64,000 bases of DNA from Stegostoma tigrinum. Lineage: Eukaryota. The DNA is taken from positions 20,792,629-20,856,628 of the forward strand of contig NC_081391.1 of the NCBI RefSeq assembly GCF_030684315.1, given 5' to 3'. The number at the start of each line of letters is the position of its first letter. Within the stretch, counting starts at the first letter, position 1. Position numbers and translations under genes: made by a program. Of this stretch, positions 53 to 64,000 are shown in pieces. Under the pieces are notes generated by a model, which was given only the letters and a program-made list of their open reading frames with translations, searched no databases and was not told the DNA's origin.

Positions 53-2052
53 ATGAGGGTCCGTGTGGCCAGAGGCCAGTTTGTGCAGATCCAGCAGACT
101 CTGGTTCACATCCTTCTCCATCTGCAGAGCTCTCTGCATTGCCTCCAGACCATTGCCCCACTCATCCTGCCCTGGCTTCTGGAGGGAGGGAAGCAGTAAC
201 AAAGCACAGCTCAGCAGGCAGTTGTATCATTAGTCTATATCTGATCAGTTAGTTGTCTGTCATCATTGTAGGGAGGTACTTCAGACCAACTTTACTTTGG
301 CATCAAACAACCTCTAGATTTCACACGGTTCTGAAAGAGCAAGTTTAAGCATATCCTACATTGGGAGAATAGGTACCAATGGAAGTAATTCCTTGCTTTG
401 CTATTCTATGCCTTGGAATTGTTCTGATCACAACAACATTAGAAACATCTAGATAAGCAAGGCTGAAAGCTGCTGCTTTCTTCTCCTAGAAATCTAGTCT
501 TACCTTCTGTGGCCTCATCTTGTTTACACACTTGCTCACCTTCCAATATTCTGGATCACCTCAATTGCCTACTGTTCTTGGAACATAAAAGAGAAAAAGG
601 CATTTCCTTCAAAATGAATGTGTATTTTGTTTCAGTGAGCAACCTACCATTCAGAGCATTTACTCAGTCCTACAGGTCAACAGAGATGTACCAGTCAGCT
701 CACAAAGAGCTGCCAACTTGAAGATCAAGAATCAACCTTGATGTCCTGCAGGAGGACTCAGCCTCGATGTTTATTCTGGAATGCCATCAGTTTCTCAGCG
801 TGTGCCCGTTCCTCATGGGACTGCTCCTTGAAGAACTCAGCAAAGTGACGCAGGGCAACATCATCCCAGTCAAAGTAACAGAACTGCAAAGTGGGAAGCA
901 AACGTCAGTCTCAATGGCTCACTTTAACCAATCACTGTTTTTGCTTTCACCAACAGGATGTTGATAGATGGACCAAAAGAGAAAAAAGTTATGTCACATT
1001 GATGTGAGTCCAAAACCAGACATATTCACCCCTCAAAATAGAGGCAGTAAGCACAAGCTGCAGCCTCTGACCTGTGTCAGGGAGAGACATTGCAATGAGT
1101 GAGCTGTGGTGGACTGTGAAGTTCACAGCTGGATACAGCCATTAGACAACCCTGCGCTCATGGTCAGAAACACTTAGGGCTGGAAGCCAGTAAGGTCATG
1201 GTCCTACTGAATAGAGGGACCTGTGCATGTTGACCAGGGTGCCAGGAAATCTCAGCCAGCTCCCCATATCACTCACCTGATTAAACAGTGTCCTACGATC
1301 TACTCTACACCAAACCATGACCAATTTGGTTCTAGATCATTCACATTTCAAGTGAAAGAATGTGCTGCATCACAGTTAGCATCTAATAAAAACACTCAGG
1401 AAAGGTCATTGGGCCAAAACAACATGAACTGATTTCTCACCACAAATCCTGCTAGACCAGCAGAGCCTATCCAGCAGGCTTTGTTTTTGTTTCTTGTTCC
1501 CAGTAGTTATCCCAATTTTAAGTTAGTTGGGACTTTTTAAAAAAACTTCATTAATTGGGCATTTAAATCAAGCTAAGCTTCCACAAGGAACATTTCCAAG
1601 ATAAGGAGCAGTTGAAATCAATAAGGAAGGAGTTGAATTACAAAGCAAAGCCAGCCCATCCCTCTACACCAGAGGATGCTCTGCCGCAAGTGACAACACC
1701 CTGGGGACTCCCAGCCACAGGCCAGTTCTAACTGAAAACTGACTTTAAAATTTCAACACAGGCCTGCTGTGTTCATCCAGCCTCACATTTTATTACAATG
1801 TTAAGTGTGTTTACTTGATTCAGTCAGGGAAGAATAGCAAACAAGATATGTGCAAAAGCTAATTCATTGAGCAAGAAAACACTAAATCACTCAGTACAAT
1901 CATATCAGAGCTCCAATCAGAAATAGAAAATTCAGGATCACAAAGCTCACCATGGAGAGGTAAACATAGGAGGAATAGAGCTCCAGGTTGATCTGCTTGT
2001 TAACAGCATCCTCACAGTCCTTGTGGTAGTTCTGAGACACTTAGGAAACCAT
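53..2052 (-). pseudogene. Ferritin copy A, pseudogene (exon 4 lies outside the window)
   Basis: Exon 1 2052-1951, exon 2 883-737, exon 3 178-53, all with GT/AG ends and canonical lengths 102/147/126. Codon 4 is TAA (ATG GTT TCC TAA), and exon 2 has an in-frame TGA at 760-758 where intact copies have CGA. Confidence 0.92.
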
Positions 2053-2099
2053 CTTCACTATTATCTAAACAACTCTAAAACTGACCCTTTCCACACCCA

Positions 2100-2225
2100 C
2101 AAGCTCTTGTATTTATACTCCGGGGGGCAACATCCCAACATCAACGAGGGAATGGTGTCACGAATGATGACTGACAATTGCTAACAGCCAATCAGGTGTC
2201 ACACATGAATTCAGGCACCAATTAG
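2100..2225 (-). promoter_or_regulatory. Proximal promoter of copy A (TATA plus inverted CCAAT boxes)
   Basis: TATAAA on the minus strand at 2117-2112. CCAAT on the plus strand at 2188-2192 and ~2218-2222. Same layout as upstream of the other copies. Confidence 0.7.
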
Positions 2226-2529
2226 AGAGAGGGGGTGGGTGTGTTAAGCAAAGCTGATCAGAGGTGGAGATGTGAGCCAGGTCTGGATGGTTCTTCTGTG
2301 ATTGGAACAGCAGGAGGCCATTCGGCCTCTCAAACCTGCTGCACCACTCAATCAGGTCATGGTTCGTTTGATTCTTTTTAAAATAAATTAATTTGGATTG
2401 GAAAAGGTTGACAAGTTTACTTTTTAAATTCAGGTGGGTGTGATCGACTGCACAAGGGGCTCAATGAGGAAGGGGTGTCAGTTTCTCAGCCTGTTGTGCT
2501 GGGATTTGGGAAAGAAAGGTGCGAAATTC

Positions 2530-9286: not shown

Positions 9287-11662
9287 TCAATTCAGGGTGA
9301 GCTTGTCAAACAAGTATTCTCATGCCCTTCGCAGGGGGTTCCAGTGTCTCCAGGTTGGTGATGTGATGTCCCAGTTTCTTGATAGTCTTCACTTGCTCAT
9401 CCAAGTAGTGCCTCTCCAGGAAGTCACACAGCAGGAGAAACAAAGTCAAAATTATTCTACAGAATCAAAAAGCTATTTGAAAGTAATCTTCCATTTCAGA
9501 TGTGACCATCACCCAGCCAGACTGATGGAGAGGTACACTCAGGTGATACTGTTATAGTTTTAACAGTGTGCAGATGGCTGTTGAGAAAAATCTTTTCTGC
9601 TCGAGTGCACAGGAAGATCATTTGCTTCCAAGCTTTGGAAAGAATTTCTCCTGTAATTCCTGATAGTGCTTTCCCGGATTGCAAGCATGAAAGGGAAAGA
9701 AAACTTCTTAAAGAGGAGAAACTCACATGAGGGCCCATGAGTTCAGAGGAGAGTTTGTGCAGACCCAGCAGACACTGTTTCACATCCTTCTCCATCTGCA
9801 GAGCTCTCTGCATTGCCTCCAGACCACTGCCCCACTCATCCTGCTCTGGCTTCTGGAGGGAGGACAGGAGAAAGAACAAGCACCTCAGTCTCAACAGAGA
9901 GAGAAACACTGAATTATCTTTAATGTTTACAGTGAACAAAGGTCACAAGGTAGAGTTGTTGTTTAAAATTCACTCACAGGATGAGGGCATCACTGGCTAG
10001 TCAGCATTCATTGCCCATTCTCAATTGCCCAGAGGGCAGTTCAGAATCAACCACATTGCTGCATGTCTGGAGTCAGATGTAGTTTAGACCTGGTAAGGAT
10101 AGTAGCTTATTTCACTAAAAAGGGCATTCGTGACCCATTTGGTTCCCCCCTCCCAAACAATTGGCAGCAAATGCACAGTCATCATCGAATCCCTACAGTG
10201 TGGAGACAGGCCCTTCAGCCCAACAAGTGTATACTGACCCTCAGAGCATCCCACCCAGGCCTATCCCCTAGAACCAACCTAATCTACACTCCCTAGGGCA
10301 ATATAGCCTGGCCAATCCACCGAAGCCACACATCTTTGCAATTGTGGGAGGAAACCACAGCAAACTCACACAAACATAGGGAGAGAATGTCTGTGTGGCA
10401 TTTGCACACAGTCATCTGTGAGTGGAATTGAACCTGGGCCCATGGTACTGTGAAGCAGCTGTGCTAACCACTGAGCCACCCATCATTAGGCTTCTTTGCA
10501 GAAGTTATTGCATTCAAATTCCACCATCTGCCGTGGTGGAATTCAAACCCCAGTCCCTCAGCTGTTATCTGGATTCATAGTACAATAATACTGCTAGGCC
10601 ATCACCTCCACACTGCTGTTTTAAAATTCATTTCAAACAAATTTATGAAAAACTAAAGGTAATCCAGGCAGGAGGCAAGTCATTCCATTAAACACAACCT
10701 GGATGTCCTGCAGGAGGACTCAGCCTTCACATTTATTCTGTTATGCCATCAGTTTCTCAGCTTGTTCCTGCTTCTCCTGGGAATGCTTCTTGAAGAACTC
10801 AGCAAAGTGACGGAGGGCAACATCATCCCTGTCAAAGTGAAAGGACTGCGGAAGAAAAATAGCAGCTAGTTTTATAACTTTGAACTCACTTGTTCCTCTA
10901 AACAAAAAGCTGACAGGAGTGCCTAGACTTCATTTTGTATCAAAAGTGAGACACTGTTCACCGAGTCTTTGGAAATAGTAAAGTTTCATCTCAGATGGAC
11001 TGCAACAAATCAAACTAAACCACTGGACAAATGCCTTCTACTACAGGTGGAGAAAAGAAAAACTCAGCCATCTGTCAAAATTCTAATATGCTGAACCCAC
11101 AATAGGCTAATGTGCAAGATAAACAATTCTAAAGGAAGTTTCAGTATTTCAAAAGTAGCAAAAAAATCAAGAACATAACCACCTTGTGTTGATCAGTCAT
11201 CCCATTGAGAACTCCTTTCCCCGACTATTCGAAAGTAAAGCATTCAGACACGTGCTCAGAAACAAACTAAAAATTCCTATTCTAAGATCTGGAGCAGGTA
11301 GAAGTTGGACCTCGGCTCGAAAGCCCAATAGGAAGGACATTACCACAAGTACAGCCTTTGTAATGATTGTTACTTTGGTTTTTTTTTTTACACTGAATAG
11401 AGGAGATATGACAAATAGCAACTGAGTCACTCTAAATCACTAGGAGTAATTCGCTGTTTAAATTTTTCCCCTCACAGACTCCAACAGTCTAAACAAGTGT
11501 AATAGTTATTTTATTCAATTGGAGAAAAAAGTTGAGGAGAGTCACAGGAAGACAGCTCACCATGGAGAGGTGCACAATGGAGGAACAGAGCTCCACGTTG
11601 ATCTCCTCGTTAACAGCAGCCTCACACTCCTTAGCATAGTTCTGATGCACTTGGGAGGCCAT
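9287..11662 (-). pseudogene. Ferritin copy B, pseudogene
   Basis: Exon 1 11662-11561, exon 2 10845-10699 (TAA at 10743-10741, TGA at 10722-10720), exon 3 9852-9727, exon 4 9431-9287. The exon 4 acceptor is TG instead of AG, and there is a 2-nt deletion near GMGEY. Confidence 0.93.
10185..10480 (-). mobile_element. tRNA-derived SINE (HE1-like) in intron 2 of copy B
   Basis: Minus strand ggtggctcagtggttagcacagctgcttcacag...ggttcaattcc. Same family as 5291-5596. Confidence 0.8.
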
Positions 11663-14910: not shown

Positions 14911-17149
<2,239 letters not shown>

Positions 17150-18185
17150 TTCTAACAGAAGAAACTCACACAGTATCCTAACTCTCAGCTTGTATATTTA
17201 GCCTAATATGGCTAGCACCACCTTTAATAGCAAGGCTCCTAGTTCAGCTGGTAATTGATCACTCCCAATAACCAATCGGAGCACTGTTCTCATCAAAAGT
17301 CACCAATTACAAGATGCAATGGATATTTTGGACCAGGGAACATTTTGGTGATAGATTCTGATTGGATGATTATCACAGGAAAGTACGAAATATTTGACCA
17401 TGTGTTTTATAAACTGTAAACTTTCCAAAAACTAAATATAAAGATGCACTGGGGCGCTTGTGGTAGGGTCTCTACCTCTGAGCCTAGAGGCCTGGCTTCC
17501 AGCCCCACCTCTTCCAGAGGTGTGCCTTATCACACTTGAGCAGGTTGCTTAGAAATGCCTGTACTGGGGCTCTTATTCTGTACGAGTAATGTCCCCACCT
17601 CTGAGTTAGAGGGTTCAAGTCCCACCTGCTCCAGGGTATGCCATTACATACCATGTCATTACAGATATCAGTAAGGACTTACTGCATTTCCACAGTGCCA
17701 CCAAATGTATTGGCACAGGATGTGGAGCTTTGAGGGAGAAATGTATGGCTCAGCCAAAGGATGTTTTGGTTAAATAAGCAATATGTCATTTTGGCAGGAT
17801 GTGTCGGCGCATGCTGTTGGAGCAGGAGGGTGCAGGCCAGTCCGTGGAGTTCAGGTGGCATGTTGGGGGAACTGGGTGTCACTCTGACTGCCTGCTTCTC
17901 TTCCACAACTTTACAGTTGCCTGTGTGGTCCTGGAGAGAAGCTGCATGCAGCATTCGCTGGTAAACTTTATACCAACTGTGTATCCCAAGGATTTGGAGA
18001 GTCTTGCATCAATAGTATGATCCAGCCTCAGCAAGGAAAGTACCCTTTTTGTATTAATGGCAATTTGTCCTCACATTGTCATCCTTTTAGTTGACTGGAT
18101 CAACCCATATTAGTCATGGCCTAGAAAAGGGACATTTCACTACAGCCCCACTCTGCTGTTGGCCACTTGAAACAGAGAAAAGCTG

Positions 18186-18485
18186 CAGGACGCACAGTGG
18201 CTCAGTGGTTAGCCCTGCTGCCTCACAGCACAGGGGACCCAGGTTCAATTCCAGCCTCGGGTGACTGTCTGTGTGGAGTCTGCTCGTTCTCCCAGGGTCT
18301 GCGTGGGTTTCCACTGGGTGCTCTGGTTTCCTCCCACAGTCCAAAGCTGTGCGCTTTAGGTGGACTGGTCATGCTAAATTGCCCGAGCTCAGGGATGTGT
18401 AGATTGGGTGGATGAAAGGTGGGAGGGTTGGTGTGGACTTGTTGGGCTGAAGGGCCTGTTTCCACACTGTAGGGATTCTATGACT
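18186..18485 (+). mobile_element. tRNA-derived SINE (HE1-like)
   Basis: cacagtggctcagtggttagccctgctgcctcacagc...ggttcaattcc (A and B boxes), ending gggcctgtttccacactgtagggattctatg. Confidence 0.87.
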
Positions 18486-20089
18486 TCTTCATATTTCAAC
18501 TTCTAGTCTTGGCCAACTCCTGGTCCAGGCACAGCAAAATTTTGGGGACCAGTTATCTCAGCTGCCTGGGTCCCTTCTGTGGCTTTAGCTGTGCCCAAGT
18601 GTCCCTGATCATGGGCCACACAATGCATGGAACACTTGGGATTCCTGCAATCAATCTATACAGTTGAGACTAGACTGCAGGCTGGCAAAAGGGAAGGAAA
18701 TCATCGTTTGATAGTTCTTTACTGCTGCTTTAATTTACTAATTTGTTAGAATTCTACTGCTCATGACCCATTAAAAACTCGGCACTTAATGGTTTACAAA
18801 ATGGAATCTGATTGAAGCTTGAACATAGCGAGACTTGTCACAGTGTTCATGTCACTGGGCCAATTAATCCAGAATGCCGGTCTAATTCAAGGAGTCTTTG
18901 GACAATGACTGGGATGAAAATAACATGCATGGGCGTGGGGGTTAAAACAGGGGAGTGGCACCAGGTGATGTTAACTTAGTAAGCTGGTGCAAGCAGGACG
19001 GGCCAAACAGTCTCTTTCTGCCCCATGACACTTCTGTGATTCTGTCATGTTACTGGGAGCAGGGGTTCTAATGTCACCAACGCAGATGATGATGTCTGAA
19101 TTCAGTAGAAGTCTGGAGTGACAAACATAGCCTGATTGCCAGGGTATGACCATTGCAGATTGCCATAAAAACCCATCTGGTTCACTAAAGTCCTTTAAGG
19201 AAGGAAATCTGCTGCCCTTACCTGGTCTGGACTACATGTGACTCCAGCTCCACCACGACTGATGGCTGCTTATCCAATGATGTCAGCCCACCTTGAAAGA
19301 GTTAATATTAAAAAAACTATCCCAACTGGTGTCCAGATAAAACCCTTTGACCTAGACTTTAGAAGAGCCACATAAGGCTTTTGTTCATGTCAATGTTATT
19401 GAATCATCCTAAGAGAGTCAGAGGCATGGACAGAGCCAGCTCGCCGCCCTGCATGAGCTACTGTTCGTGACAAAGGCTGTTGCTGCCTTCCCCTTTAAGT
19501 ATAGGAAACTACAGAGCCTGTTTAGTTTCGATCGGCGAGGGAAACCGCCTCCTGATCTAACTAGAAGAGTCTCTTGTGGTGAACAAGGTACACTTTATTT
19601 GCATGTTAGCAATGAGTTACCGGTTACACTGATATGATGGACATTGTTACCAAGACTTTGAGAAAGGCAGGATGTCAGCTCTCCTTCCTTCAAGATTCTA
19701 AACTGTTCTGCCAACAAGTCCACATGACACCATCGTAGTAGGTGGTCCTTGTGGCGCTCCTCAGTATTAATCCGTTCAGTGACATCACCAAGGCTAACAC
19801 CCAATACTGGCTTCTTATCAACACTAAATAGGTGGGAAAATAACAGAAACAGAAGTTGCTGGAAGAACTCAGCAGGTCTGGCAGCATCTGCGAAGAGGAA
19901 CGAGAGTTAACGTTTCAACCTGAAACAGTTCAACCTGAAACATTAACGTTGATTTCTCTTCACAGATGCTGCCTGAACTACTGAGCTCTTTCAGCAACTT
20001 CCGTTTTTGTGTCTGATTTACAGACTCCGCAGTTTTTTTTTCAGTTTAAGGTGGGAAAGTAAGTTGTACTGAACAAATAAGACATTTAC

Positions 20090-20945
20090 AAATAGATAGA
20101 GATAGGTGAGGAGAATGGGCCAAAGTTTGGCAAACGAATTTTAACACAGATGAGTTTGAGGTTTTCCATGTTGGTCAGAATAACCGAAGGCAACTTATGA
20201 TCTAAATAGAGAAAAACTTGAGAGAGCTTTGGTGCAGAGGAATCTGGGTATCCTCGTGCATGCATCACAGTAAACTCCTTTGTTGGTCCAGCAGCTAATA
20301 AGGAAGGGAAATGGAATTTGGGCATTTGTTGCTAAAGGAAGAAAAATATAAAAGTGGGGAAATGATGTTGCAACAGTACGAAGGATTTGTGAGACCACAC
20401 TTGGAGTATTGTGCACAATTTTGGTCCCCTTACTTGTGGAGAAAATGTAGTTATATTGAACCAAGTTCAGAGGAGGTTCATTAGATTGATTCCATAAATG
20501 AGGAGTTTGTCTGAGGCAGTGAGATTGACAGTTTTGGCCAACACTCTCCACAGGTTGGAAGGATGAGAGAGATCTAATTGAGATGCACAAGACGCTAAAG
20601 GGCATTGACATAGGGGACACAGAAATGATGTTTCCTCACATTGGGCAATCTAGACTGAGAGGTCACAGTTTTAGGGCAAGGGGCAGCAAATATAAAACAG
20701 AGGCAAGGAGGAATCACTTCTCTCAAAGAGTCAAGAATCTGTGGAACACTCTATCAGAGAGTGTGGTGGATGCTGAGACATCGAGTAAATTATAATAAGC
20801 AGATAGGTATATTTTTCATCAATTACAAATTAAAAGGGGTAATAGAGAGACCAGGCAGGAAAGTGGAGTTGAGGCTAAGATGATATCAGCTATCGTCAAA
20901 GGGGCTGACCGGTGTACTTCTGCTCCTAGGCCTTATGTACTTACA
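20090..20945 (+). mobile_element. CR1-clade LINE 3' fragment
   Basis: gagaccacacttggagtattgtgcacaattttggtcccct (RPHLEYCAQFWSP) and ORF 20583-20795 SRLRGHSFRARGSKYKTEARRNHFSQRVKNLWNTL. Confidence 0.85.
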
Positions 20946-20999
20946 TTCTAATTCACAGGATGGGAGCATCTCTGGCTGGGCCATCCTAAATTACACTTG

Positions 21000-21830
21000 A
21001 GATATTGGAGGTGTGCTATCTTCTTGAACTGCTGTAGTACAGCCACAATACTGTTGGGGGTGGGGTTACAGGATTTTGACCTGGTGACAATGCTAGAACA
21101 ACTATATATTTTTAAGTCAGGCTAGTAAGTGATCTGGAGAGGAACTTGTAGGTGGCGGTGTCCCAAAGTATACCCTGTCCTTCAATGATGTTGAAGTTGT
21201 GGATTTGGAAGATGTTGTCAGTAGAGCCTTGACAAGTTGGTGCAGTGCATCTTGTAAATGGGACCCACTGCTGCTACTGTGTAGCCAAAGGAGTGAATAT
21301 TCACACGGGGGGGGGTATGCCAAGCAAGCCTTTCTGAGGCCAACTTTTGAGTTGCAAGATCTTTTCTCAACATACCCGATTCAGCATGATGTAAATACCA
21401 AACACATGATAAAGGGTGTCCTTAACGTGAAGACAAGACTTTTCCTCTGCAAGCACAGTCACTCTTGCCAACTCTGTTGCGGAGAGCTGGATTTCTGTTG
21501 GGTACATTGTTGATGAAGAAATTTCTCTCTTGTGTTGACTCCTGCAGCATCTACTGAAACCCTGTCTGGCAGATAAAACTTCAGGACTAGGCCAACACTT
21601 AGGCTATTGAAATACTTTTGATGTTGGACATTGATGGTCTCCATCAAGAGTGCATTCTGTTCCTTTCCTGCGCTCAGCATTTTTCACGAGTGGTGTTCAT
21701 CCTGGTGGATTCACCTGCTATACGTGGTAGTTGATGGGAGATTTCCTTGCCCAAGTTTGATGCAATGCCATTGGGCTGCATGGGGTCCAGAGCTCATGTT
21801 AAGTCTCTCAGTCTCGCTCCATCCTGACTG
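21000..21830 (-). mobile_element. Decayed LINE fragment (family of 12330-13290)
   Basis: Reverse-complement similarity to the 12900-13290 tail. Further remnants around 22240-22460. Confidence 0.55.
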
Positions 21831-21899
21831 TGTATCATTGTGCTGCTCCCTCTGGTAAGTTTGGCCTGGTGATTATACAGGACATAGCCAGAGCTAGAG

Positions 21900-22238
21900 A
21901 TAGAATCATAGAATACATACAGTGTGGAAACAGGCCATTCGGCCCATTGGCTCCACGCTGACCCGCCAAGGAACATCCCGCCCAGACCCATCTCCCTATC
22001 TTATCGCTGCAACACCATGTTTCCCATGGCCAATCCACCTAGCCTACACATCCCTGGATACAATGGGCAATTTAGCATGGGCGATTCACCCTAGCCTGCT
22101 CATCTTTGGACTGTGGGAGGAAACCGGAGCACCCAGAGGACACCCGTGCGGGCACGGGGAGAATGTTCAAACTCCACACAGACAGAGGATAGAATTGAAG
22201 CCGGGTCCCTGGCGTGCGAGGCAGCAGTGTTAAGCACT
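21900..22238 (-). mobile_element. tRNA-derived SINE (HE1-like)
   Basis: Same family as 5291-5596, with a tagaa-type tail at 21900-21920. Retained CpGs suggest a younger copy. Confidence 0.82.
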
Positions 22239-22885
22239 GGGATGAAAGAGTCAGGATTATTGGCTGAAAGACATGAGATTGGCTATTTCAGACTGTTGTT
22301 TGTCCAATCTGTGGGACAGCTCCCCCAACGTTGGTCCTACTCCCCAGACATTAATAAGCAGGATGCAGCCGGGCTGCGTGTGCCCTCTCGCCAATTTTAA
22401 TGCTTAGTTCAACGCTGGGTGGTCTGTCCAGCTTTGTTCCCATCTGAGTTTTGTGTAGCAACTTGATCCAGCTGTGTGCCCTACCAGACCATGTCAGAGG
22501 GCGGCTCAGAATCAGAAATTGCACCAAATTAAAAAAAGATATTGCAGATTCCTTTCTTCTGTTTGCATCCCTCAGCTGCCTCGAAGGGTTGTGCACTCAT
22601 CTGAACAATCTTTAGTCCAATCTATTGAATCACTAATCCAAGCAATTAAACCACAGTTTAGGTTGATTCAGCTGACTGCCGGATATCGAGAGATTAGGAT
22701 TAAGGTCTCTATTTAACTTTGGAATTTCTACTGTCCACAGTGATGTTGCCATGATGTCAATAACTTCCTGCTCTCCACTAACTTTATTAGCAGGCTAGGT
22801 CTTTCTCTGTCTGAGAACTATATTAAATTTTGCCCTTAATGTTGTTTCCTGTTTTAGTCCTTGTTTGCTATCTGTTCCAAGGCTT

Positions 22886-23172
22886 TAGTGGCTCAGTAGT
22901 GAGCACTGCTGCCTCACAGTACCAGGGGCCTGGGCTTGATCTCAGCTTTGGATGGCTGAATGGAGTTTTGTGTCTCTATGGGTTTCGTCCCACAATCCAA
23001 AGATATGTAGGTTGGTTGGGTTGGCCATGCTAAATAGCCCATAGCGTAGGTTAGCTGGATTAGCCATTGGAAATACAGGGATACGGTAGTGGAATGAGTC
23101 TGGGTGGGATGCTGTGTGGAGAGGTGTGATGGACTTGTTAAGCTGAATGGCCTGTTTCCACAGGCTAGGAAT
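22886..23172 (+). mobile_element. Degenerate HE1-like SINE
   Basis: tagtggctcagtagtgagcactgctgcctcacag...gctgaatggcctgtttccaca. Confidence 0.75.
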
Positions 23173-24113
23173 TTAGAAAGAGCCTAATTACAGCCTTAAA
23201 CTGGTTACAGTAATTTTAGTTATTCTACATCTAAAATTAAATGTAGTTAGTAGTTAACTCCCCTTCAGGAAGGGGTACAAGCTGGTCTGGTTTGTGGAGT
23301 TCACCAATAGGGGTACTGGTGGTTATCTAGCTTCTAAACAACAAGCCCAAAATTCATTCTAAGTTTCTAGTTATGAAGCTCAACGATATGTAATTTGGCT
23401 TCAATTTCAGTTTTGGGTATTATTGCTGAAGATAACTGCTCCAGCAGTTTGGTGAAGTAAATAAGCTTGTATCTTCAGTCGGCTGGCTTTAACTGTATCG
23501 GTACAATATTCATGCAGTTTGAATTCTTTTGTAGTCGTCTTACTTTGACCGGGATGATGTGGCTCTGTGTCATTTTGCTGAGTTCTTCAAGGAATACGTG
23601 GAATGGGAACACTCTGAGAAACTGATGGCATTCCAGAATGAATGTGAAGGCAGCGTCCTCCTGCAGGACATCAAGATTGGTCTATCCTCCTACATTACAA
23701 CCACCTGAGCTAGACATGGATTTGAAACATAAGTACCCCTGAGGTAATGCAGTAATGCTATAATGCACAACTTTCCAATTATCTTTCGCTCATTTTTGAT
23801 ATAGTGACACATCTGTCTCTTCCCTCCCTCCAGAAGCCAGGGCAGGGTGAGTGGGGCAATGGTCTGGAGGCAATGCAGAGAGCTCTGCAGATGGAGAAGG
23901 ATGTGAACCAGAGTCTGCTGGATCTGCACAAACTCACCTCTGGCAACACAGACCCTCGTGTGAGTTCCTGATGTGGGCTTTTGGACAAATTGGGCTGTAG
24001 CACCTGAGGCTATTCAGTACTATTTTTGAGTAAACATCTTGCTTGTGATCTGATAACCAGGCTCTTGAGGGCTTTTGGCCGACTGGACCTTAACAAGGGC
24101 AATAAGGCACGGT

Positions 24114-24143
24114 CTGATGAAGGGTCTAGGCCCGAAACGTCAG
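24114..24143 (+). ncRNA. Minimal type I hammerhead ribozyme motif (Penelope-associated)
   Basis: CTGATGA + A-GGGTC-TA-GGCCC + GAAA + CGTC + AG, i.e. the conserved core, a short stem II and a palindromic ACGT stem III. Lies in a Penelope-derived unit at ~24113-24249. Activity not demonstrated. Confidence 0.65.
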
Positions 24144-24249
24144 CTTTTGTTCTCCTGAGATGCTGCTGGGCCTGCTGTGTTCATCCAGCCTCACATTTTA
24201 TTATCTTGGATTCTCCAGCATCTGCAGTTCCCATTATCACTGATACAAT

Positions 24250-26270
24250 AAGCCAGGGTAGGTGGCTGCAGTGTCAGTGGGGGAGCATATTATTAGAGCC
24301 AGGAACCATAAATTTGTTTTTTGCAAAATAGTGATGGAAAAGCAGAAACCAGTTACCTTTAAAAAAAGTCAAAATTGGCCACCTTCCAATTTAGAAGGTA
24401 CTAGGCAAGAACTTCCAAAAGCTTACTGGGACAGACCTTTGCAGGTAAAGGATGGCTAGAAAAATGGGAAGCTCTCAAAAATGAGAATTGCCCAGAGACA
24501 CTGTTCCTGTTAGGTTGGAAGGCAAGGCTGATAGGTGTAGGAATGCTCGATGACAAGAAAAATTGAGGTTTAATGAAAGGAAACATCCATCAGGCATGGG
24601 CATCAGCCTAAGTATACTCTTACTGCCTTTATGTTCTAAAGAAGGAAATCAGGACAGCAAAAAGGGGACATGAAAGCTTTGGCAAATAGGGTTAAAGCAA
24701 ATCCAAAGGACTCTACAAAAAGCTTGAGGAGAAAAGTGTCCCTATGTGTGGAGTCCCAAGAGCTGTGGAGATACTAAACAAGTGTTTTTCCACAATATTT
24801 AATGTGGAGAAGCTTGTGGAAGATGTAGAACATGGAAAATAGTGATATCTTGAAAGAGCTCAGCATCAGAGGTGGTGCTGGACATCTTAAAACACATAGG
24901 TGGACAAATCCTTCGGACCTAAGTAGCTGTACCGTAGAAATCTGGAGTGATTGCTGGGCCCCTTGCTGAGATAGTTGTATCATTTGCTATCAAATTTCCT
25001 ATCTAAAGATAGGAGGTTAATGTGGTAAGGAAAGGTTAGAGAACTATAGACCAATGAGTCTGACATTTGGTGTTGGGCAAGTTTGAGGGAAAGGATTTTA
25101 AGTCCTTTGCCAAGGCAAGGACTGATTAGGAATAGTCAACACAGCTTTGTATGGGAAATTGTCTCTAACTTCATTTGAAGAAATAATGAAGAGGATTGAA
25201 GGCAGAGAAGTGGGTGTGATCCAAATGGACTTCAGTAAGTCATTGAACAAAATCCCTCTTGCTAGACTGGTAAGCAAGGCTGCATCATATGGAATACAGG
25301 GAGAATTAGTCATTTGAATACTGAACTGGCTCAGGTAGACAAAAGGTAGTGGTGGGCGGTTCTTTTCAGACTGGAAACCTGTGACCAATAGTGTCACAAG
25401 GATTGATGCTCTGATGAAGGGTCCAGGCCCGAAACATCAGCTTTTGTACTGCAGAGATGCTGCTTGGCCTGCTGTGTTCATCCAGCTCCACACTTTGTTA
25501 TCTTGGATTCTCCAGCATCTGCAGTTCCCGTTATCTTTGATGCTGGGCCTGCTGCTTTTCGTCCTGTATCATTCAGATGTGAGGTATGGTTAGTAAGTCT
25601 GCAGATATCCTCAAAATGGAGGTGTATTGGACAGTGAAGAAGGGCACCTAGAGCAATTGGATCTCCATCAGATAGCTCAATGGGCTGGCGTGGGAGATGG
25701 CATTTAATTTAGATAAATGTGAGGTGCTGGATTTTGGAAATACAGATCAGGACTTGGAACGCTTGGCTTTATTGGTCAGCTCCTTGAGTATAGTAGGTGA
25801 AGTCATGGTGTGGCTGCACACAAGTGGTTATTCCACTTTGGAATACAACACGTGATTCCCATCCCCAGCTAATAAGGATATTCTGAAACTTGAAAAGGTT
25901 CAAAAGGTTTTAAGGGTGGTGCCACAGCAGGGAGAGGCTGAGTAGGCTGGAGCATTGCCCTGGAGTGTCAGGAGCTGAGGTGGGGATGCGGGAACCTTGA
26001 GGGGCATGTTTACAGAAATAGTCAGAACATTCCCCAGGGCGGAGTCCAAAACTAAAGGGCATTAGTTTAAGGTGAGGCAAAGATTTAAGAGATCTAAGGG
26101 ATACCTCTCCACACAAGGTTGTGTCTGGAATGAGTGTTGGGAAGCGATGGCTTATATAATGACAACACTTAAAAGGCATCTGGATGGGTATATGAATGGG
26201 GCGGGGAGCGGGGGGGAAGCGGTTGAGGGATATGGGCCAAATTGTGGTAAATGGGATTAGATTAAACTAA
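24250..26270 (+). mobile_element. ~2-kb decayed CR1 LINE ORF2 in intron 3 of copy D
   Basis: gagaactatagaccaatgagtctgaca (ENYRPMSLT), atggacttcagtaagtcattgaacaaa (MDFSK motif) and a CR1-like 3' end. Second Penelope-derived insert at ~25408-25537. Confidence 0.85.
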
Positions 26271-29200
26271 TCTATTTGTGGATAATTTACACTGAAGTGT
26301 CTGCTTATGCTGTACATCTGATCCAGGATCGTGACATCTCTGGATTTGGGGTCTGTATGGTAATTTCGCTACACTAGAATTATATCAGCTGTTTTCGCTT
26401 CCCCTCATTCAAGAGGAATGAACCCTTCCAAGAGAAACCACGTCTTCAATTCATTTTTCCTTTCTCCAGCTGTGTGACTTCCTGGAGAGGCACTACCTGG
26501 ATGAGCAAGTGAAGATGATCAAGAAGCTGGGAGATCACATCACCAACCTGAAGAGACTGGGAGCCCCTGACAATGGCATGGGAAAGTACCTGTTTGACAG
26601 GCTCACCCTGGGGGAGAGTGACTGAACTGCCTGCAGGGAGTGAGTTTGTTGTCATGTGTCTGAATGGGAGACCTGTAGAGACTTATCCTTTTGTAGAAGC
26701 AGCTCATTGCCCTGCACCAAGTGTAAATAGACTGGTCAATAATGGACTCTCTTTCTGGGTTAATCGTTGCTGAGAGCTGTGCTGTAGCTTGATCCTGTTT
26801 TAGTTCTGTTCCTGCTGATGGGAACACTTTCCCCACTGGGCTGTGGGTTTCACTGTGTGGACCAGTGTCCTCAAGGTGAGCTGCTGCTTTCAACAATTGG
26901 GGCCATACTCTTGAAGGATTTGATACATTTTCACCAAGGAACTGTACTTCCAAGGCAGGTTGGCAAATGGCTTGGAAGGAACTTGCAGGTGGTGCTGTCC
27001 TCTTATATCTGTTGCCTGCCTTGCTTCTCGATGGAAGTGGCCTCAGTTTTGGAAGGCGCTGAGGAGCCTTGGTGAGTTTCTGCAGTGCATAGCACAGTAC
27101 AGCCTGGCGCTAAATTTTCAGTGCAGGGAGTGAATGCGGTATCAGGGTAACATAACAAATCCTAGTTAGAATCCATTCCTTCAGACAATGCAAGCTTCAG
27201 AGAAGGCCCTATCAACTGAAATTAAACTTAATGAGACTTTTGGTCAAATACCAAAACACTTGAGATTTAGTTTTTGCTGAGCAGCAACTGCTTGGTTGTC
27301 AGTCTGCAGAGTACAAGGGATTGCCCCCATATCTCTGCCATGTCCTCTTACAATTCTGGAACAAGAATCACAGTAGGTGACTAGTACTAGATCACAGGAT
27401 TGACAGCTCTATCTTATGGTTGATGTAGAATGCAGCCAACATTTCAGTGAGCCCAGCAACACAGCAGTCAGCATACCACGAGTTGCCTCACTTGAACAAT
27501 ACTAATTTTGGCTAGATCAGAAGCTGAGCCATTGTTGCCACTGGTTACCAAGGCAAAGAAATATTCAGTGTGCAATGATTCCAGTCTATCAAATTTATTT
27601 AACCCACATCCTCTTCGAGCCAGTTCCCAATATTACAGGGTGACATGTATCTGGCAAACTCTGCCTCAATCACTTGATATGAGGTGAATTGGTTACAAAC
27701 ATACAACAGCTCAAAACCTGATATCAAAGTCAACTTCCACCATTCTGTGTCTGAACAAAATTGGTCTCAAACCTTTTTGACAAAACAGCAGCAAATGCTC
27801 CATCAATTTGTATTGGTGTGAATTAGTTTTTACGCCCAATTGTGGATCAATTTTTCCAGCTGATGTTCAAACTCCATTTGTTGCAATAGCCCCCTACGAA
27901 TAGATTTGAAAGTTGACGTTGCAGCTGTAATTATCCAGCGTCTTCAGAGGTTTCGGGAATTTTGAGAAATGCAGTAGGTGTAATAAAATTCATTTATCGA
28001 CAGTTAATTCCTTTGCATCTCCTGGGGAAGGTTTCAGGCACAACTTGCTGTTGTGTCAAAATTCAGAAATGAGACCGCATTACTTGCCAGCTCTAGTTTA
28101 TTCATCACCAGCCTTGTCACTATCGCTGCTCCTGACAGGTGCTGCCACCAAATTCAAATAATCCTGTGAAAAAGCTCTATCAATTGTTCCTGTTGCATTC
28201 AGCAGTTTCCAGACAGTCCTGTACTTGTGAAATAGCTGCATGATATCACACTGTGTGATTTTCCAGCATAAAGGTATCTGCTTTTTACTGCTTTCTCTCT
28301 AACACAGACGGTTTAGTCAGTCTGTTGTGTGAAATAGACAGTTACATTAAGGCACGCAAACCAGACTAAATGTGTTCATTGTGTAAACTACAAATTGAAT
28401 CATGGGAGCATCCCACAAACATTGACACAGAGAATGCCGTTAGCCTGCAAACCAGTGTAGATACACAAACTGAAGAACAGTGAGAGTCCATATGAGAGGC
28501 TGCCGATCTACATTCCAAGAAATAGAATTTTAAATGGCCCTTAAAGGACAACTCAAAGAACTCCTTGAAGAAAATGTATTTTAAAAGTTAAAACATTCGG
28601 TTTCTGTTTTGATAAAAAAGAATGACCTGTGTCCAGAAGTCAGCTGTTTTTCATTTTCTCCTTCCAAATTGGCAGAACAGTTGAAAACAAAAACCCCCAT
28701 GCTGTTGTGAGATCAGATTTCCCTCCGACTGAACTGCATGTAATAATTTGGGAGTAAATACCAAACCTCGTGGATATGAGTACAGTGAATAAACGTCAAG
28801 TGTATGCATGTGATGTTCAAGTTGTTAAATTCAGGCATTTCAATATCAGAACAGAACTGATGATGGTAAAAGGGTTGGAAGTTGGGATATGATCAGAACA
28901 ATGGCACAGGATAACCACCATCATGGCATCTAACTGAGGAAAGGAGTGGGTCATTGAAGAACCATGCGATGCCAGACAACTGCCATTCATAGCGCTGGAT
29001 GGTGAGAAATAACATCATTGAGCTGGTCTGTCCAGATCAAAGAGGCTGTTAAGCACTGACCATTCAGCAGAATGGCCTCAGTAAATGCACTGATGTTATT
29101 TCATTAAGGATTATCATAAGAGAAAGAACTGGCATTACAGATGGAAAGTGGGAAAGGATTGGTCGGCCTGACTCAGGCCTGCATTCAACAGAGGATGGAG

Positions 29201-31711: not shown

Positions 31712-34360
<2,649 letters not shown>

Positions 34361-39392: not shown

Positions 39393-42105
<2,713 letters not shown>

Positions 42106-47869: not shown

Positions 47870-48057
47870 TCCCTGACTAAAATTAGTGCCTGGGTTGATG
47901 GGAGATTCCTGATTGGCTATCAAGGGTTGTCAATGATCATTGGTGACATCATTCTCTGATTGAGAACAGGATGTTCCAGGAGTATAAATACAAGAGCTTG
48001 TGCATGAGAGGCTCAGTTCTGGAGCTGTCTAGTTGGTTGTGAGCAGGAATAGTGAAG
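47870..48057 (+). promoter_or_regulatory. Proximal promoter of copy G
   Basis: ATTGG at ~47912 and ~47939, canonical TATAAA at 47983-47988. The distal CCAAT/CACCC block seen in F, H and I is not recognisable. Confidence 0.72.
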
Positions 48058-52272
<4,215 letters not shown>

Positions 52273-56461: not shown

Positions 56462-58872
56462 ATAGCCTTCCCAAGTGTGTCAGAACTACCACAAGGACTG
56501 TGAGGATGCTGTTAACAAGCAGATCAACCTGGAGCTCTGCTCCTCCCATGTGAGGCTGGTGGCACTGAAAGCTCCCCTCTTCCTGCTTGTCTGCCACCCT
56601 CCCCTGCCCTGCCCCACCAAGGTCAACATGTTAGTGATTTTGATGCCCTATGTTTTTGTAGTTTTGCTTTATTATATTGGCTGGATACCCATTCTAGTCG
56701 TCCATGTGGTTTTTGTTTGCCTTGTTAACTGACCTCCTGTTCTCTGACTTTGGTTTTTTATTCTGTAATGTTTCATATGGGAGGTAAACCCAAGGCTCCT
56801 TTTTTAAGCTTCTTGAACATGTCTTTTTTTAATGATGCATAAACCTGATCAACTTCTATTTATCAGAGATAATGGGAACTGCAGATGCTGGAGAATTCCA
56901 AGATAATAAAATGTGAGGCTGGATGAACACAGCAGGCCAAGCAGCATCTCAGGAGCACAAAAGCTGACGTTTCGGGTCTAGACCCTTCATCAGAGTGCTC
57001 TCTGAAGGGTCTAGGCCCGAAACGTCAGCTTTTGTGCTCCTGAGATGCTGCTTAGCCTGCTGTGTTCATCCAGCCTCACATTTTATTATCTCAACTTCTA
57101 TTTATCTTTGATTAAAGATAATTGGGTGCCTCACTAGTGAAACAGGAATGGAGTCCTCCTGTGCATGTTTCTAAATGCCTATAATCCTGCTGTATGGGCC
57201 TTAATACCAGTGCTTCCCTGACAATTGATGTTTTGTTATTTCTTCAATGTCAAAGGGCTTTGTCTTTCGATTAGATGCTTAAAGCCCTTGGTGAAAGGGT
57301 CTCTGGTTAAATTAGTTGGTTTGAGTAATGAAACACATCTTGGCTCCCTGTTAAATCACACTTTTCTGAATTGGGTGTTGGGATCTTGAATATCTGAGGA
57401 AGTAATGGCTAATGTGTGATGCCAGTTGCAACACAAGCTCTTGCTTTAATGTGCTCTGGTCTGAGGGGTTCCCACCATAATGAAGTCACATAGGGAGAAG
57501 GCAGTAAGTGCAGAGAGTTAATCTTTGGTCCCATAAACTGATAGACCATATGACCCAATGAAGACCTCACTGTTTTTCCTAACATTGTGCTCATTTTGTG
57601 GCATTCCAGAATTTTTCTCAGGATAACCAGCAACTGTGCCTTTTCAAAAATCTCCATTTTTCTTATTTTTCAATGACAAACACCCAACCTCCTGAGTTAG
57701 ATCAAGTTTCTAACTTCAGTCAAAAGACTTTATATTCCTAAACTCTGGATTTCTACTTCCAAAGTCTACACCACCCTGATATTTGTACATTATCCAGATA
57801 TTCAGGATTGTACACCATTTTTTTTAGTCTGGAAAAATGAGGCCGGTTCTTATTGGAGTTCACAATGGATGCGATCTGGAGCTTGCTGGACTCTACCACT
57901 TCCCCTCTTCTCCCCACAGTCCTTTTACTTTGACCGGGATGATGTTGCCCTGCATCACTTTGCTGATTTCTTCAAGGAGCAGTCCCATGAGGAACAGGAA
58001 CACGCTGAGAAACTGATGGCATTCGAGAATAAACATGGAAGCTGAGCCCTCCTGCAGGGTTGATCTATCCTCTGACATTAAGACCTGAACTAGACATGGA
58101 TTTGAAGCTTACATTCTGCTGGGGCAATGCCACAATGCTATATGGCATGTGTTGAGTTACATTCTCAACTCACTGCATTGCACTTTCCTTCATGCTTCAC
58201 ATTAGTGAAGCATCTACCCCTTCCCTCCTTCCAGAAGCCAGAGCAGGATGAGTTGGGCAATGGTCTGGAGGCAATGCAGAGAGCTCTGCAGATGGAGAAG
58301 GATGTGAACCAGAGTCTGCTGGTTCTGCACAAACTCTCCTCTGGCCACATGGGCCCTCATGTAAGTCCTTGATGAATTTTTAGAGGTATTGCAAGTGATA
58401 TCAAAATCTGATCTGCACTCCATGTTGGTCAAGGGCTATGTAAGGCTGTGTTTTGGGGTAACAGTGTACTAATTGTCTCAGATTAATCTGGCTAGTAATG
58501 TTGAAGTAGCTGGGGTGTAAATTTGAGATTTTTTTTTCCTAGTTGAATGAAATTAGCTTGGAATTGGTCTGCAAGTCTGGTTTGATTTAGACTTTTGGAA
58601 TACTTGTGGCCTCTTGGAGATAAGCCAGCTGCTGCACCCATCCAAAACTGTTAGAAACCCAAATAAAGCCTATCTGTACTAATTACTCAATCTTGCAGGT
58701 TTCTTTTTGCTCCTCCAGCTGTGTGACTTCCTGGAGAGGCACTACTTGGATGAGCAAGTGAAGATGATCAAGAAGCTGGGAGATCACATCACCAACCTGA
58801 AGAGACTGGGAGCCCCTGACAATGGCATGGGAGAGTACCTGTTTGACAGGCTCTCACCTGGGGGAAGAGTGA
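56462..58872 (+). pseudogene. Ferritin copy H, pseudogene
   Basis: Start codon is ATA (56462). Exon 1 has a +1 nt insertion and a ~15-nt deletion. Exon 2 57920-~58058 has TGA at 58043-58045 and an 8-nt deletion. Exon 3 58235-58360. Exon 4 from 58719 has a frameshift at ctctcacctg. Confidence 0.92.
56865..57090. mobile_element. Palindromic Penelope-derived insert in intron 1 of copy H
   Basis: 16-bp TSD TCAACTTCTATTTATC at 56849-56864 and 57091-57106. Inverted arms. Intact hammerhead motif on the minus strand at 56993-56964 (stem GGGTC-TA-GACCC). Confidence 0.88.
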
Positions 58873-60589
58873 CTGAAATTATGACAAGGAGCTCACTTAA
58901 TGCCTTTAAATAGGAGACCTGTAGAGACTTCTTGTTTTTTTTTGTAGAAACAGATCATTGTTCTGGTACCAAATGTAAATAAACTATTCAATGTTGGACT
59001 GGGTGTTGCCTCCCTTGCTGTGAGCTGTGCTGTAGCTTGATCCTGTTTTGGTTCTGTTCTTGCTGATGGGAACACTTTCCCCATTGGGCTGTGGGTTTCA
59101 CTGTCTGGCCCAGGCAATTGCCTGGGCCTAGTTGTCTTTGACGTCGTGAGCTGCTGCCTTGAGCCACCCTGCATCTTTTGTATAGATGGACCCACAATAG
59201 TCTTGAAGGAAGGAATTGGCACTGACCCAAAAACAGTGAAGGGTTAGGAATGGCTGCTTGTCCTGTCCTTCTCAGCAAAAGGACCAACTGAGCAGAGGGC
59301 TTTAAGCCATCAGGCAAACCTGAGGACTAGTGGGAACACTTGAGACCCTGGTGGGTTAAGCATGACCAATAAACCCATGTACTTCTGGCTTTGAATTAAT
59401 GAGAAAGTTATGCTTGGGGAACTTTACTCTTAATTTTGGTGTTTTTTTTTAAACCTGTTGAGTATCTTACACTCCACTGGAGCAGGTGGGGCTTGAACCC
59501 ATATCTCCCAGACAATGGGTAGGGATACTACCCCTCCACCACCAAGGCATCTGCAAAATACAGCCTGCCAAGTGTACACATCAGGGGAGAGCCAATAGTA
59601 AATCAGGGTGAAATTGAACTTTATTGGCTTGTCAAATTTGTCAGTTATTGTTCGGCTCCTGGGGAGCAGTGGCAAAGCCCTAGGGTGCAGGCACAGTGCC
59701 TCAAAGGTGTGGACAGGGTGGGGAAGAAGGCATTTGAGGTGCTTCCCTTCATTGGTCAGTGCATGGAAGGTAGGAGTTGGGATGCCATCCTATAGCTAAG
59801 TAGGACACTGGTGAGGCCACTTTAGGAAAGGAACACAGCTTTCAATTGGTCTCTCTGCTATAAGAAGCTTTGAGAGCTCCAGGTCCAAGAAAAAGATGAG
59901 CAAGGAGACTGGTGGGGAGACTCTTTAGATTTTAGTTCATGAGGGGTATGGACAGAGTGAATAGTAGAGTCCCCTTTCCCTAGAGTTAGGTAACTAAAGG
60001 GTTTAGTTTTAAGGTGAGGGGGCAAGATTGAAGGGAGGCGGGAGAAATGATCAGAGGGGTAACTCTCCTGCAATGCCTCATGTATGGAATGAGCTAGTGG
60101 AGGCTAGTACCAATGTGACACTTAAGGCACCTGATTGGGTATGTGAAAAGAAAGGGGTTTAGAGCGATTTTAATCAAATGTTGACAAGGGGGATGAGATA
60201 AGCTTTCCATATCAGGTCATTATGGATGCATCAGATCACATGGTTAGTTTCCATACTGTCCCTTAGTCCAACTGAGAGGTATTAAGAACTGGTGATGAGC
60301 TGGTATTCTAATAGTTTGTAGTTGTGTCAAATTTGTGCTCCTTAATTAATAATCAAGTTTTGGGACCCTTGCAATGAAGAAACATGGAAAGGCTACAATA
60401 TTGTCACCCTCTTTCACTTGGGTGACATCTGTAGGCGCACTTCCCCCCCCCGCCTCAAAAAAAATCCTCCAAGCCAGTTAGTCAAAGGCCCGTGACATAT
60501 AACAAACAAAACAGGAGCAAAGCCAACAGAAATATAAGAGAGCAATATATGCTCCTTTCCTTTTTTTAAGGCTGAAATGATGGCAAGAA

Positions 60590-62390: not shown

Positions 62391-62639
62391 TCAGATGGTG
62401 GAAAACTGCTTCATTAAAGGTAACATTTTTTAATCACTTCATACCCACCCCAGGATAGATACTTTCTGAGTAACGTGTTCAGGAGACAGCGGGACCTGAC
62501 TGCAGAGTCTTCAGGCCCAGAGGTATGGACATTATCACAGCACATATCCATTCACCAAAAAAAAACAGCTAGATTGGCCTGTGTTAAGGGCCTATCATCC
62601 AAAAGCACTTGCATCTTTAAGGCTAATTTCCCAAAAGTC

Positions 62640-62885
62640 TCTGTCATCAAAATCTCTGATTGGCTCTGGGTCTTAGCCCCATCCCCATAACACCCTGTCC
62701 CTTTCAATTGGGTGGTGGATTGATAGGGTATTCCAGATTGGCTGACAGGAATTATCAGTGATTATGGCTGATGTCAATCCCTGGTTAAGAGCAGGATGTT
62801 CCCAGGACTATAAATACAAGAGCCTGTGGGAGAGAGAGACTTAGTTCTAGAGTTTTCTTGGTGCTTGTGAGCAGGAATAGTGAAG
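62640..62885 (+). promoter_or_regulatory. Proximal promoter of copy I
   Basis: ATTGG at ~62659, ~62708 and ~62737, CACCC at 62691-62695, TGATAG at 62721-62726, TATAAA at 62809-62814. Confidence 0.72.
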
Positions 62886-64000
62886 ATGGTTTCCCAAGTG
62901 TGTCAGAACTACCACAAGGACTGTGAGGATGCTGTTAACAAGCAGATCAACCTGGAGCTCTATTCCTCCTATGTTTACCTCTCCATGGTGAGCATTGTTG
63001 TGTACAAGGTCCCTTCTTTCTCATTGTCTGGCCCCCACCCTGTCAAGGGTAACTAGGGGTGGGCAATATGCTGATGTCTATGTCTATGTCCTATGTGTTT
63101 CACAATTGGCTTTGACTTTATGGCTTGGTTGGATTGGCTTGAAATGAAGTCTGTCCAATGACTTGGTGAATGTTTCTTACCTCATTCACTCCATTCAAGT
63201 CTGCTTTTGTGCTTGGTTAACTGATGACTCTGCATTCCATAAACTTGGTTTTACTCTGAACTGTTTTGAGACATAAATCCAAGGTTCCTTGTAGCTGGAT
63301 GACTGTCATGATGCATGAACCTGCTCAATTTCTAATCAACTCTGTTGTGACTAGGTGATGCATGTGTGATACACAAATAACTACTTATGACTCCTCTGCC
63401 TGTTTCTGAATGAGTATAATCCTGTTGGCCTCTTCAAATGCAGGGAGAAACTATTTTCTTTGCTTGCCTGAATTAACAGACCATAACACCCCTGTAGACA
63501 TGATCTCTACTCATTCTTTGTACTATTGTGCTTGTTTGGCTTGCATTCTATTTTTTCCCCTGCCTCAAGTTGATAAACTACACAGGCTCTTGTTGAATCT
63601 CTGGGTGAGATCTGGGGCTTGCCTGACTTTGCCACTTTTGTCCTCTTCTCCCACAGGTCTCTTACTTTGACCGGGATGATGTTGCCCTGCATCACTTTGC
63701 TGAGTTCTTCAAGGAGCAGTCCCATGAGGAGCGGGAACATGCTGAGAAACTGATGGTATTCCAGAATAAACGTGGGGGCTGGGTCCTATTACAGGACATC
63801 AAGGTTGGTCTATCTTCCTACACCTGAACTAGACATGTCTTTGAAGCTTGAATTTCTGCTGCTGGAATACCACGATGCTATATGGCACGAGTCCTTAGTT
63901 ACCCTTCAATTTTTGCACTGACATATCTGCCTCTTTTCTCCCCACCCCCTCCCTCCAGAAGCCGGAGCAGGATGAGTGGGGCAATGGTCTGGAGGCAATG
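62886..64000 (+). CDS. Ferritin H/M-type subunit, copy I (partial; open as far as visible)
   Basis: Exon 1 62886-62987, exon 2 63657-63803, exon 3 from 63959 to the window end. No stops or frameshifts. The conserved Arg79 is Trp (TGG 63780-63782). Confidence 0.85.

Follow-up and report, generated by a model that had tools for sequence, protein, structure and literature searches.

A ferritin array in Stegostoma tigrinum is very likely a slice of the shark-wide FTH1b cluster and carries intact catalytic-type copies with no recognisable iron-responsive element

The window analysed here is a stretch of 64,000 nucleotides of the Stegostoma tigrinum genome (NC_081391.1, positions 20,792,629 to 20,856,628; all positions below are counted within the window), and it holds nine ferritin loci, copies A to I. 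Judged by sequence and phylogeny, it is very likely a slice of the tandem FTH1b cluster found throughout sharks, the orthologous cluster in a carpet shark. The intact copies are predicted to encode catalytic subunits from transcripts whose short leader has no iron-responsive element (IRE), and we consider that they probably supply ferritin in bulk for iron storage in the ovary or eggs. The ferritin expansion itself is already known. Added here are the absence of the IRE, a TATA/CCAAT promoter block, the pattern of ferroxidase ligands and Lys19, and the difference in divergence between exons and flanks.

The loci were located by blastn and tblastn with the exons of copy E as probes and resolved by exon-by-exon alignment. 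Whole-exon matches were 82-100% identical (E about 1e-25 to 1e-77) and are not due to chance. The Pfam family PF00210 (Ferritin) was matched by all four exons of copy G, exons 2 and 3 scoring above the curated cut-off and exons 1 and 4 below it. Copies E, F and G are intact, with open frames of 175, 173 and 175 amino acids in four exons (102/147/126/147-153 nt) separated by three GT-AG introns. The frame of copy I is open up to the window edge, and copies A, B, C, D and H are disabled by stops, frameshifts or broken splice sites. Introns stand at identical positions in all copies, and none is a processed retrocopy, which would have no introns. The features, from left to right, are as follows.

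53..2052, minus strand: copy A, pseudogene; exon 1 at 1951-2052, exon 2 at 737-883, exon 3 at 53-178; stops at codon 4 and within exon 2; exon 4 past the window edge.
9293..11662, minus strand: copy B, pseudogene and the most decayed copy; exon 2 interrupted by two stops, exon 4 without its acceptor and with a 2-bp deletion; metal-site residue changes Y31H, E59K and H62Q.
14915..17149, minus strand: copy C, pseudogene; frame shifted by two 1-bp deletions (exon 2) and one of 14 bp (exon 3).
17150..23534: switch of orientation from C (minus) to D (plus); interspersed repeats.
23535..26625, plus strand: copy D, remnant truncated at its 5' end and reduced to exons 2-4; exon 2 lacks 6 bp at the metal site, and its donor is AT.
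31712..34360, plus strand: copy E, intact, 175 amino acids; exons 31712-31813, 33476-33622, 33800-33925 and 34208-34360.
39393..42105, plus strand: copy F, intact, 173 amino acids; exons 39393-39494, 40738-40884, 41036-41161 and 41959-42105.
47880..48057, plus strand: proximal promoter and short 5' leader of copy G; CCAAT at -146 and -119, TATAAA at -75.
48058..52272, plus strand: copy G, intact, 175 amino acids; exons 48058-48159, 50932-51078, 51220-51345 and 52120-52272.
56462..58873, plus strand: copy H, pseudogene without a start codon; exons 1 and 2 lack their 3' ends, exon 2 holds a stop, and exon 4 has a 1-bp insertion close to its end.
62886..64000, plus strand: copy I, open through exons 1 and 2 and 42 nt into exon 3, where the window ends.

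This alignment upheld the tally of nine copies given in a first-pass annotation of the same DNA (3 intact, 1 open but partial, 5 disabled). The plus-strand spacing of 6.4-8.7 kb noted there agrees with measured start-to-start distances of 7681, 8665, 8404 and 6424 bp, and both window ends do fall inside copies, in intron 3 of A and exon 3 of I. The description of the loci as four-exon copies in tandem was right about their being ferritins and about their number, but D is a three-exon remnant and the order is not uniformly head to tail, as copies A-C lie on the minus strand and copies D-I on the plus strand, the two groups pointing apart. Because D has no exon 1 and A and I are cut by the edges, all four exons lie inside the window in six copies only (B, C, E, F, G and H). 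No exon 1 or promoter for copy D was found between 17.2 and 23.5 kb; their loss may date from an inversion behind the strand switch at 17150-23534. An AATAAA signal stands 106 nt past the stop codon in both E and G, and copy F has a 3' untranslated region (UTR) of its own, also with AATAAA.

As far as tested, the array was confirmed as genuine. Where the non-coding DNA of different units can be aligned, mismatch is about 21% (F-H 21.7% over 2390 bases, F-I 20.9% over 2247 bases), and so the copies are not split or collapsed alleles. Four sequencing runs were aligned to the stretch 45400-64000, which contains copies G-I: X19, which covers introns and spacers, and X1, X2 and X3, which come from relatives and are guessed to be RNA. 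They were taken from a run search with 22 rows, 18 of which had only 0.05-0.11 of the words, and 15 of these 18 were not used. In the independent run X19, contigs of unique introns and spacers, about 99% alike, covered all 30 of the 30 bins; no single contig spans the whole stretch. Its exon depth was far above that of unique DNA; this is not a copy number and hence was not used as one. Flank divergence and X19 coverage agree with the earlier judgement that an assembly artefact was unlikely.

Inspection of database proteins placed the window copies among those of sharks. Exon 4 of copy G matches 293 proteins; among the 120 listed, 109 come from 13 sharks and 3 rays by source name, and the remaining 11 from turtles, lizards and one unnamed record. 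The 90% clusters hold up to 180 members; clusters of 69-180 near-identical members extend over several species, and many members lie on one chromosome-scale record per species, as read from at most 40 members in each cluster, at most 15 of them listed. A quick tree was built from 82 rows, namely five window copies and 77 of the first 120 proteins, 43 being left out by length. Together with proteins of whale and zebra sharks, the window copies fell into a carpet-shark clade of 19 rows (support 98), and this clade was nested in a 62-row elasmobranch clade (support 97), which bears out the cartilaginous-fish host presumed in the first-pass annotation. The best identities were 93-97%, to annotated zebra-shark copies, none of them identical. 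The window thus carries what distinguishes an FTH1b cluster, namely multiple tandem four-exon copies belonging to an elasmobranch-expanded clade.

Two groups of proteins in the same set stood apart. Three shark ferritins with an N-terminal extension resembling a targeting peptide (P0112, P0113 and P0115) form a clade of their own (support 100); they are annotated on the array-bearing chromosome-scale records of the sevengill and basking sharks, and are possibly mitochondrial or secreted. The turtle proteins (one 90% cluster; P0084, P0094, P0108-P0110 and P0114) represent several species with more than one related 176-amino-acid ferritin per record, which hints at a smaller tandem array in reptiles.

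Shark ferritin clusters have been described in two recent papers on the Greenland shark, with tandem arrays that range from 55 to over 100 copies. Sahm et al. (2024, bioRxiv 10.1101/2024.09.09.611499) reported 155 FTL and 179 FTH1 copies, counts that in our view may overlap, with about 80% in three clusters; the white shark is reported to share their synteny, and expression of the largest cluster to be ovary-specific. Yang et al. (2026, PNAS, PMC13214024) counted 59 copies of FTH1b, 55 in one tandem cluster and 4 in another, and found five copies to be 5'-truncated; they reported more FTH1b copies in sharks in general, detected expression of some copies in fin and blood, proposed a link to ferroptosis, and noted high copy numbers in sharks without extreme lifespans. 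The first-pass annotation had taken the amplification for a lineage-specific and possibly undescribed one. Neither part survives, since the two papers between them, and the database proteins, show the expansion to be common to sharks, and the clusters have been published. Being shark-wide and published, the array largely answers to the described, conserved locus that the annotation itself had named as an outcome against its proposal.

The main text of PMC13214024 contains no mention of gene conversion, concerted evolution, pseudogenes, iron-responsive elements, ovary or ferroxidase, and the accessible text of PMC11719527, PMC13701976 and PMC13193013 adds nothing further beyond reference to that paper. 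IRE loss, the residue pattern of two subfamilies and exon homogenisation were not found in the literature searched or in that main text, and supplements, figures or subscription journals may cover them.

The ferroxidase ligands listed in PMC4117605 are E24, E58, E59, H62, E104 and Q138. All six are present in copies E, F and G, and by this ligand set the three are predicted to encode catalytic (H- or M-type) subunits. Two shark subfamilies were distinguished among 151 proteins, those of suitable length among 200 labelled database proteins, which are automatic predictions: a catalytic one (n=122), with the six ligands complete in 96 of 122, and a non-catalytic sister (n=19), with none complete and Lys59 in all. 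Copies E, F and G are of the catalytic type with E59 and do not have the character of L chains; within the window, K59 occurs only in pseudogene B. Membership of copy B in the L-like subfamily was considered and rejected, as its long branch stands among the catalytic copies of carpet sharks. The K59 subfamily (P0079, P0093, P0095, P0103, P0105 and one cluster) is also expanded in sharks. It shares its chromosome-scale records with the catalytic subfamily and groups with a lizard protein named 'light chain, oocyte isoform-like' (support 90, long branch).

A further residue pattern concerns position 19, which by alignment register corresponds to Arg23 of human FTH1. Seven of the 8 window copies and 116 of the 131 subfamily proteins have Lys19, as do the 170-amino-acid PDB ferritins that best match exon 1. 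Human Arg23 is needed for binding of NCOA4, and the R23A change abolished binding (PMC4592949); the surface arginine that marks mammalian FTH1-type NCOA4 cargo thus appears to be replaced by lysine. Met141 was found in 122 of 131 subfamily proteins, where the M chain of 1mfr has Asp. Affinity to H as against M or L chains was judged by score ranking only, M being best overall and L for exon 4: the close relative P0011, compared as a whole protein with PDB, scored best with the M type (1mfr, 284 bits; 183-amino-acid heavy chains, 269-271), and exon 4 scored best with an L chain (76 vs 74.7 bits).

Upstream regions of the copies were compared with that of copy G. Homologous blocks lie upstream of A, B, C, E, F, H and I, and CCAAT boxes are common to the eight copies. 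A TATA-like box stands 52-81 nt 5' of the start codon in 7 of 8 copies, as a variant box 81 nt upstream in F and as TATAAA at -77 in I, and from its position a leader of about 35-55 nt is predicted. An Rfam search yielded no IRE at the gathering score, its 16 matches down to E=10 included none of the IRE families, and the IRE loop motif CAG(T/A)GH was absent between the TATA-like box and the start codon. With the transcription start so predicted, the window copies lack the 5' UTR IRE that marks canonical iron-regulated H, M and L genes. A contig from a relative aligns across the 12 bases before the start codon of copy I, and the leader is therefore not spliced at those bases. Since the H and M genes of salmon all carry IREs (PMC4117605), the IRE-less shark copies are a departure.

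Several candidate elements were examined and rejected. Copies F, H and I have CAGTGA at -126 to -130 and copy C has CAGTGC at -137, but these sequences are 5' of the TATA-like box and have no Rfam IRE match. An E-box of the FIGLA type, considered as an oocyte promoter signal, did not occur at a shared position, and copy G had none in 300 nt. Of the four copies checked for runs of U resembling polyadenylation elements, E and D alone had them, which gave no support. Copy E may be weakly transcribed, its TATA-like box having been lost.

Contigs from X1, X2 and X3 join ferritin exons at exact exon ends, and a 630-nt contig from X3 runs through all four exons. These results show that relatives splice this subfamily.

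If the leader is short and IRE-less as predicted, iron-regulatory proteins would not throttle its translation, and ferritin output would be set by promoter activity and copy number rather than by cellular iron. Amplification would be favoured where one cell type needs very large amounts of ferritin or banks iron ahead of need, and dosage amplification, as proposed in the first-pass annotation, is a reasonable inference. The subunits would assemble into 24-mer cages for the oxidation and storage of iron, possibly mixed ones with the non-catalytic E59K sister subfamily, which is annotated on the same chromosomes of related sharks. Copies would be born by unequal crossing-over and die by mutation, with exon gene conversion probably keeping the coding parts alike while introns and flanks grew old and diverged. 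The likeliest job for such an array is maternal iron storage, because ovary expression is reported for the Greenland-shark cluster, zebrafish follicles are rich in ferritin transcripts, and ferritin is found in amphibian and snail eggs (PMC1488847).

A number of points weigh against this combined reading of cluster, regulation and function. The cluster was assigned from sequence and tree rather than by a synteny comparison with the published clusters, and the tree contained no canonical shark FTH1 and no teleost H or M sequence. The transcription start was predicted from the TATA-like box, the Rfam search for an IRE was run without a positive control, and copy E has no TATA-like box (31640-31711) though its frame is intact. 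No RNA run of this species was found in the run search, so that expression of the window copies is putative; X1-X3 are other organisms of unrecorded tissue, and their being RNA is a guess. Ovary expression comes from a single preprint on another shark (bioRxiv 10.1101/2024.09.09.611499), some FTH1b copies are expressed in fin and blood (PMC13214024), and ferritin was among the liver-specific proteins of a dogfish transcriptome (PMC5568229).

The last of these points bear on a somatic alternative, in which dosage was amplified for general antioxidant or anti-ferroptosis protection in many tissues, as proposed for FTH1b of the Greenland shark and fthl27 of snailfish. It would account for the activity of part of the FTH1b copies in fin and blood and for the proposed link to ferroptosis (PMC13214024), and it has a parallel in the 14 mostly tandem fthl27 copies, which are expressed in most tissues and lowered reactive oxygen species in cells (PMC10746142). 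Spliced transcripts in 3 of 3 putative RNA runs aligned, their tissue unrecorded, would fit as well. Yet the largest Greenland-shark cluster is reported to be ovary-specific (bioRxiv 10.1101/2024.09.09.611499); fin and blood are the only tissues named in the main text of PMC13214024, which never mentions 'ovary'; sharks without extreme lifespans have high copy numbers too; and the predicted lysine at the NCOA4-binding position recurs through the window and the subfamily. We consider the somatic reading unlikely. It is very improbable that most of the array is neutral clutter, or that assembly has inflated it, and that no more than one copy is of use. The death of five of nine copies, the failure to find an RNA run of this species and the lack of a single contig across 45400-64000 are what one would then expect, but low ratios of non-synonymous to synonymous substitution (dN/dS 0.09-0.32 among E, F, G and I), flanks diverged by about 21%, complete coverage of that stretch by X19 and conservation of the expansion across sharks are not.

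Supply of ovary and egg ferritin by the intact copies remains the reading that we prefer. It can be extended to an elasmobranch egg-iron factory, in which hundreds of IRE-less genes driven by TATA and CCAAT boxes, the catalytic Lys19/Met141 and non-catalytic E59K types being amplified together and conversion being limited to exons, would build a maternal store independent of iron and possibly resistant to ferritinophagy. In this full form the proposal is possible but speculative. If it were true, the published longevity and ferroptosis reading would describe a by-product of reproduction. Should the copies simply be IRE-less and ovary-driven, the expansion would reflect the iron provisioning of very large eggs and not the control of longevity or ferroptosis, and the two recent genome papers would be read differently. 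The discovery value is small, as shark ferritin expansion has been published; the added details make the open question testable.

We also examined how the array has evolved. The open copies are under purifying selection, as the dN/dS values given above demonstrate. Birth-and-death evolution, the mode named in the first-pass annotation, is borne out by these values and by the five dead copies of nine, but it is probably incomplete on its own because exons are more alike than flanks. Synonymous divergence (dS) was 0.08-0.18 among E, F and G, and corrected distances were 0.24-0.33 for promoters and 0.31-0.46 for intron 2. At four-fold degenerate sites 137 of 1513 comparisons differed (about 9%; all 36 pairs, which are not independent, taken together), whereas flanks differ by about 21%; among the pairs were 0/48 for F-H, 2/60 for F-G and 1/50 for G-H, with binomial P of about 1e-4 to 1e-5 vs 21%. 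The 5' flanks unite F, H and I, the 3' flanks unite D, E and G (about 9% mismatch), and distances between promoters show no correlation with those between exons (Spearman 0.07, 28 non-independent pairs). Paralogues group by host lineage. All 24 proteins from bamboo and epaulette sharks combine E159 with L162, and none of the 32 from zebra and whale sharks and none of 6 window copies has L162; R132 is present in all 56 proteins of carpet sharks and in none of 63 from other sharks. From these comparisons it seems rather probable that gene conversion of exons has acted on top of birth and death.

Some observations count against conversion. Pairs involving copy E differ at 7/63 and 8/63 four-fold sites (P 0.03-0.07 at 21%, not significant at 15%), and synonymous sites appear to be slow between species too, because the spliced X3 contig of a relative differs from the window exons at 18 of 513 bases, of which the 9 listed all change the amino acid. 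Pure birth and death, with synonymous sites constrained by codon use and very high expression and with recent copy death, is quite possible, if somewhat doubtful, and would fit either function. The low divergence between species agrees with it, as do a GC content of 0.66-0.68 at third codon positions vs 0.42-0.44 in introns, and a short intron 2 that is not homogenised (22-35% mismatch) though it lies between two homogenised exons. It does not readily explain why pseudogene H differs from F at 25 non-synonymous positions and at 0/48 four-fold sites, why promoter and exon distances are uncorrelated, why 5' and 3' flanks group the copies differently, or why amino-acid changes are fixed across paralogues by lineage. 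If exon conversion holds, vertebrates would have here a clear example of an old protein-coding array in which homogenisation is limited to exons.

Other parts of the window were inspected as well. F, H and I have 1.3-2.4 kb of mostly upstream DNA in common at about 20% mismatch (36600-39400, 54200-56460 and 60400-62880), which marks larger ancestral duplication units. At 43571-45222 a 670-bp inverted repeat, 97.6% alike, surrounds a stop-free frame of 253 amino acids (44143-44904), and the whole looks like a young insertion between F and G. The frame has no Pfam match and carries a stretch 'VVYCIHC...YIGET', which we take to resemble the GIY-YIG endonuclease of Penelope-like retroelements. Short palindromic high-copy repeats at 35750-35965, 45940-46165, 56860-57100 and 61590-61790 have very high X19 depth and weak matches to microRNA models, and are probably back-to-back ends of one shark repeat family. 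Nine other long open-reading-frame stretches in the window gave no Pfam match above cut-off, and no transfer RNA gene and no non-ferritin gene was recognised in it.

Among known systems, several resemble the array in part. The FTHL17 family of mammals is intronless. This X-linked FTHL17/Fthl17 family is similar in its germ-line-associated paralogues, proposed gene conversion and many pseudogenes, whereas human FTHL17 has no ferroxidase activity and the shark copies have introns and intact ligands (PMC5363321). The M subunit of amphibians and teleosts (1mfr; salmon M1-M3, PMC4117605) is alike in giving the best PDB scores, in the ligands with the nucleation residues E54/E61 and in its four exons, but the salmon M genes have IREs, and the window subfamily has Met141 where 1mfr has Asp and Lys19 where it has Arg. 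The hadal snailfish fthl27 (PMC10746142) is likewise a tandem dosage expansion of a fish ferritin; it is a recent, broadly expressed set of 14 copies in a teleost, in contrast to the old and much larger shark cluster. The closest systems are the Greenland-shark clusters. Those of Sahm et al. are large and ancient, with full-length copies and ovary expression, and their H-like and L-like labels match the catalytic E59 and non-catalytic K59 subfamilies; the window has only the catalytic type, copy B being ambiguous, and the ferritin section of that preprint gives no gene-level anatomy, promoter or IRE analysis. The FTH1b clusters of PMC13214024 share with the window the tandem multi-exon copies, the 5'-truncated ones and the shark-wide expansion, and differ in coming from other species.

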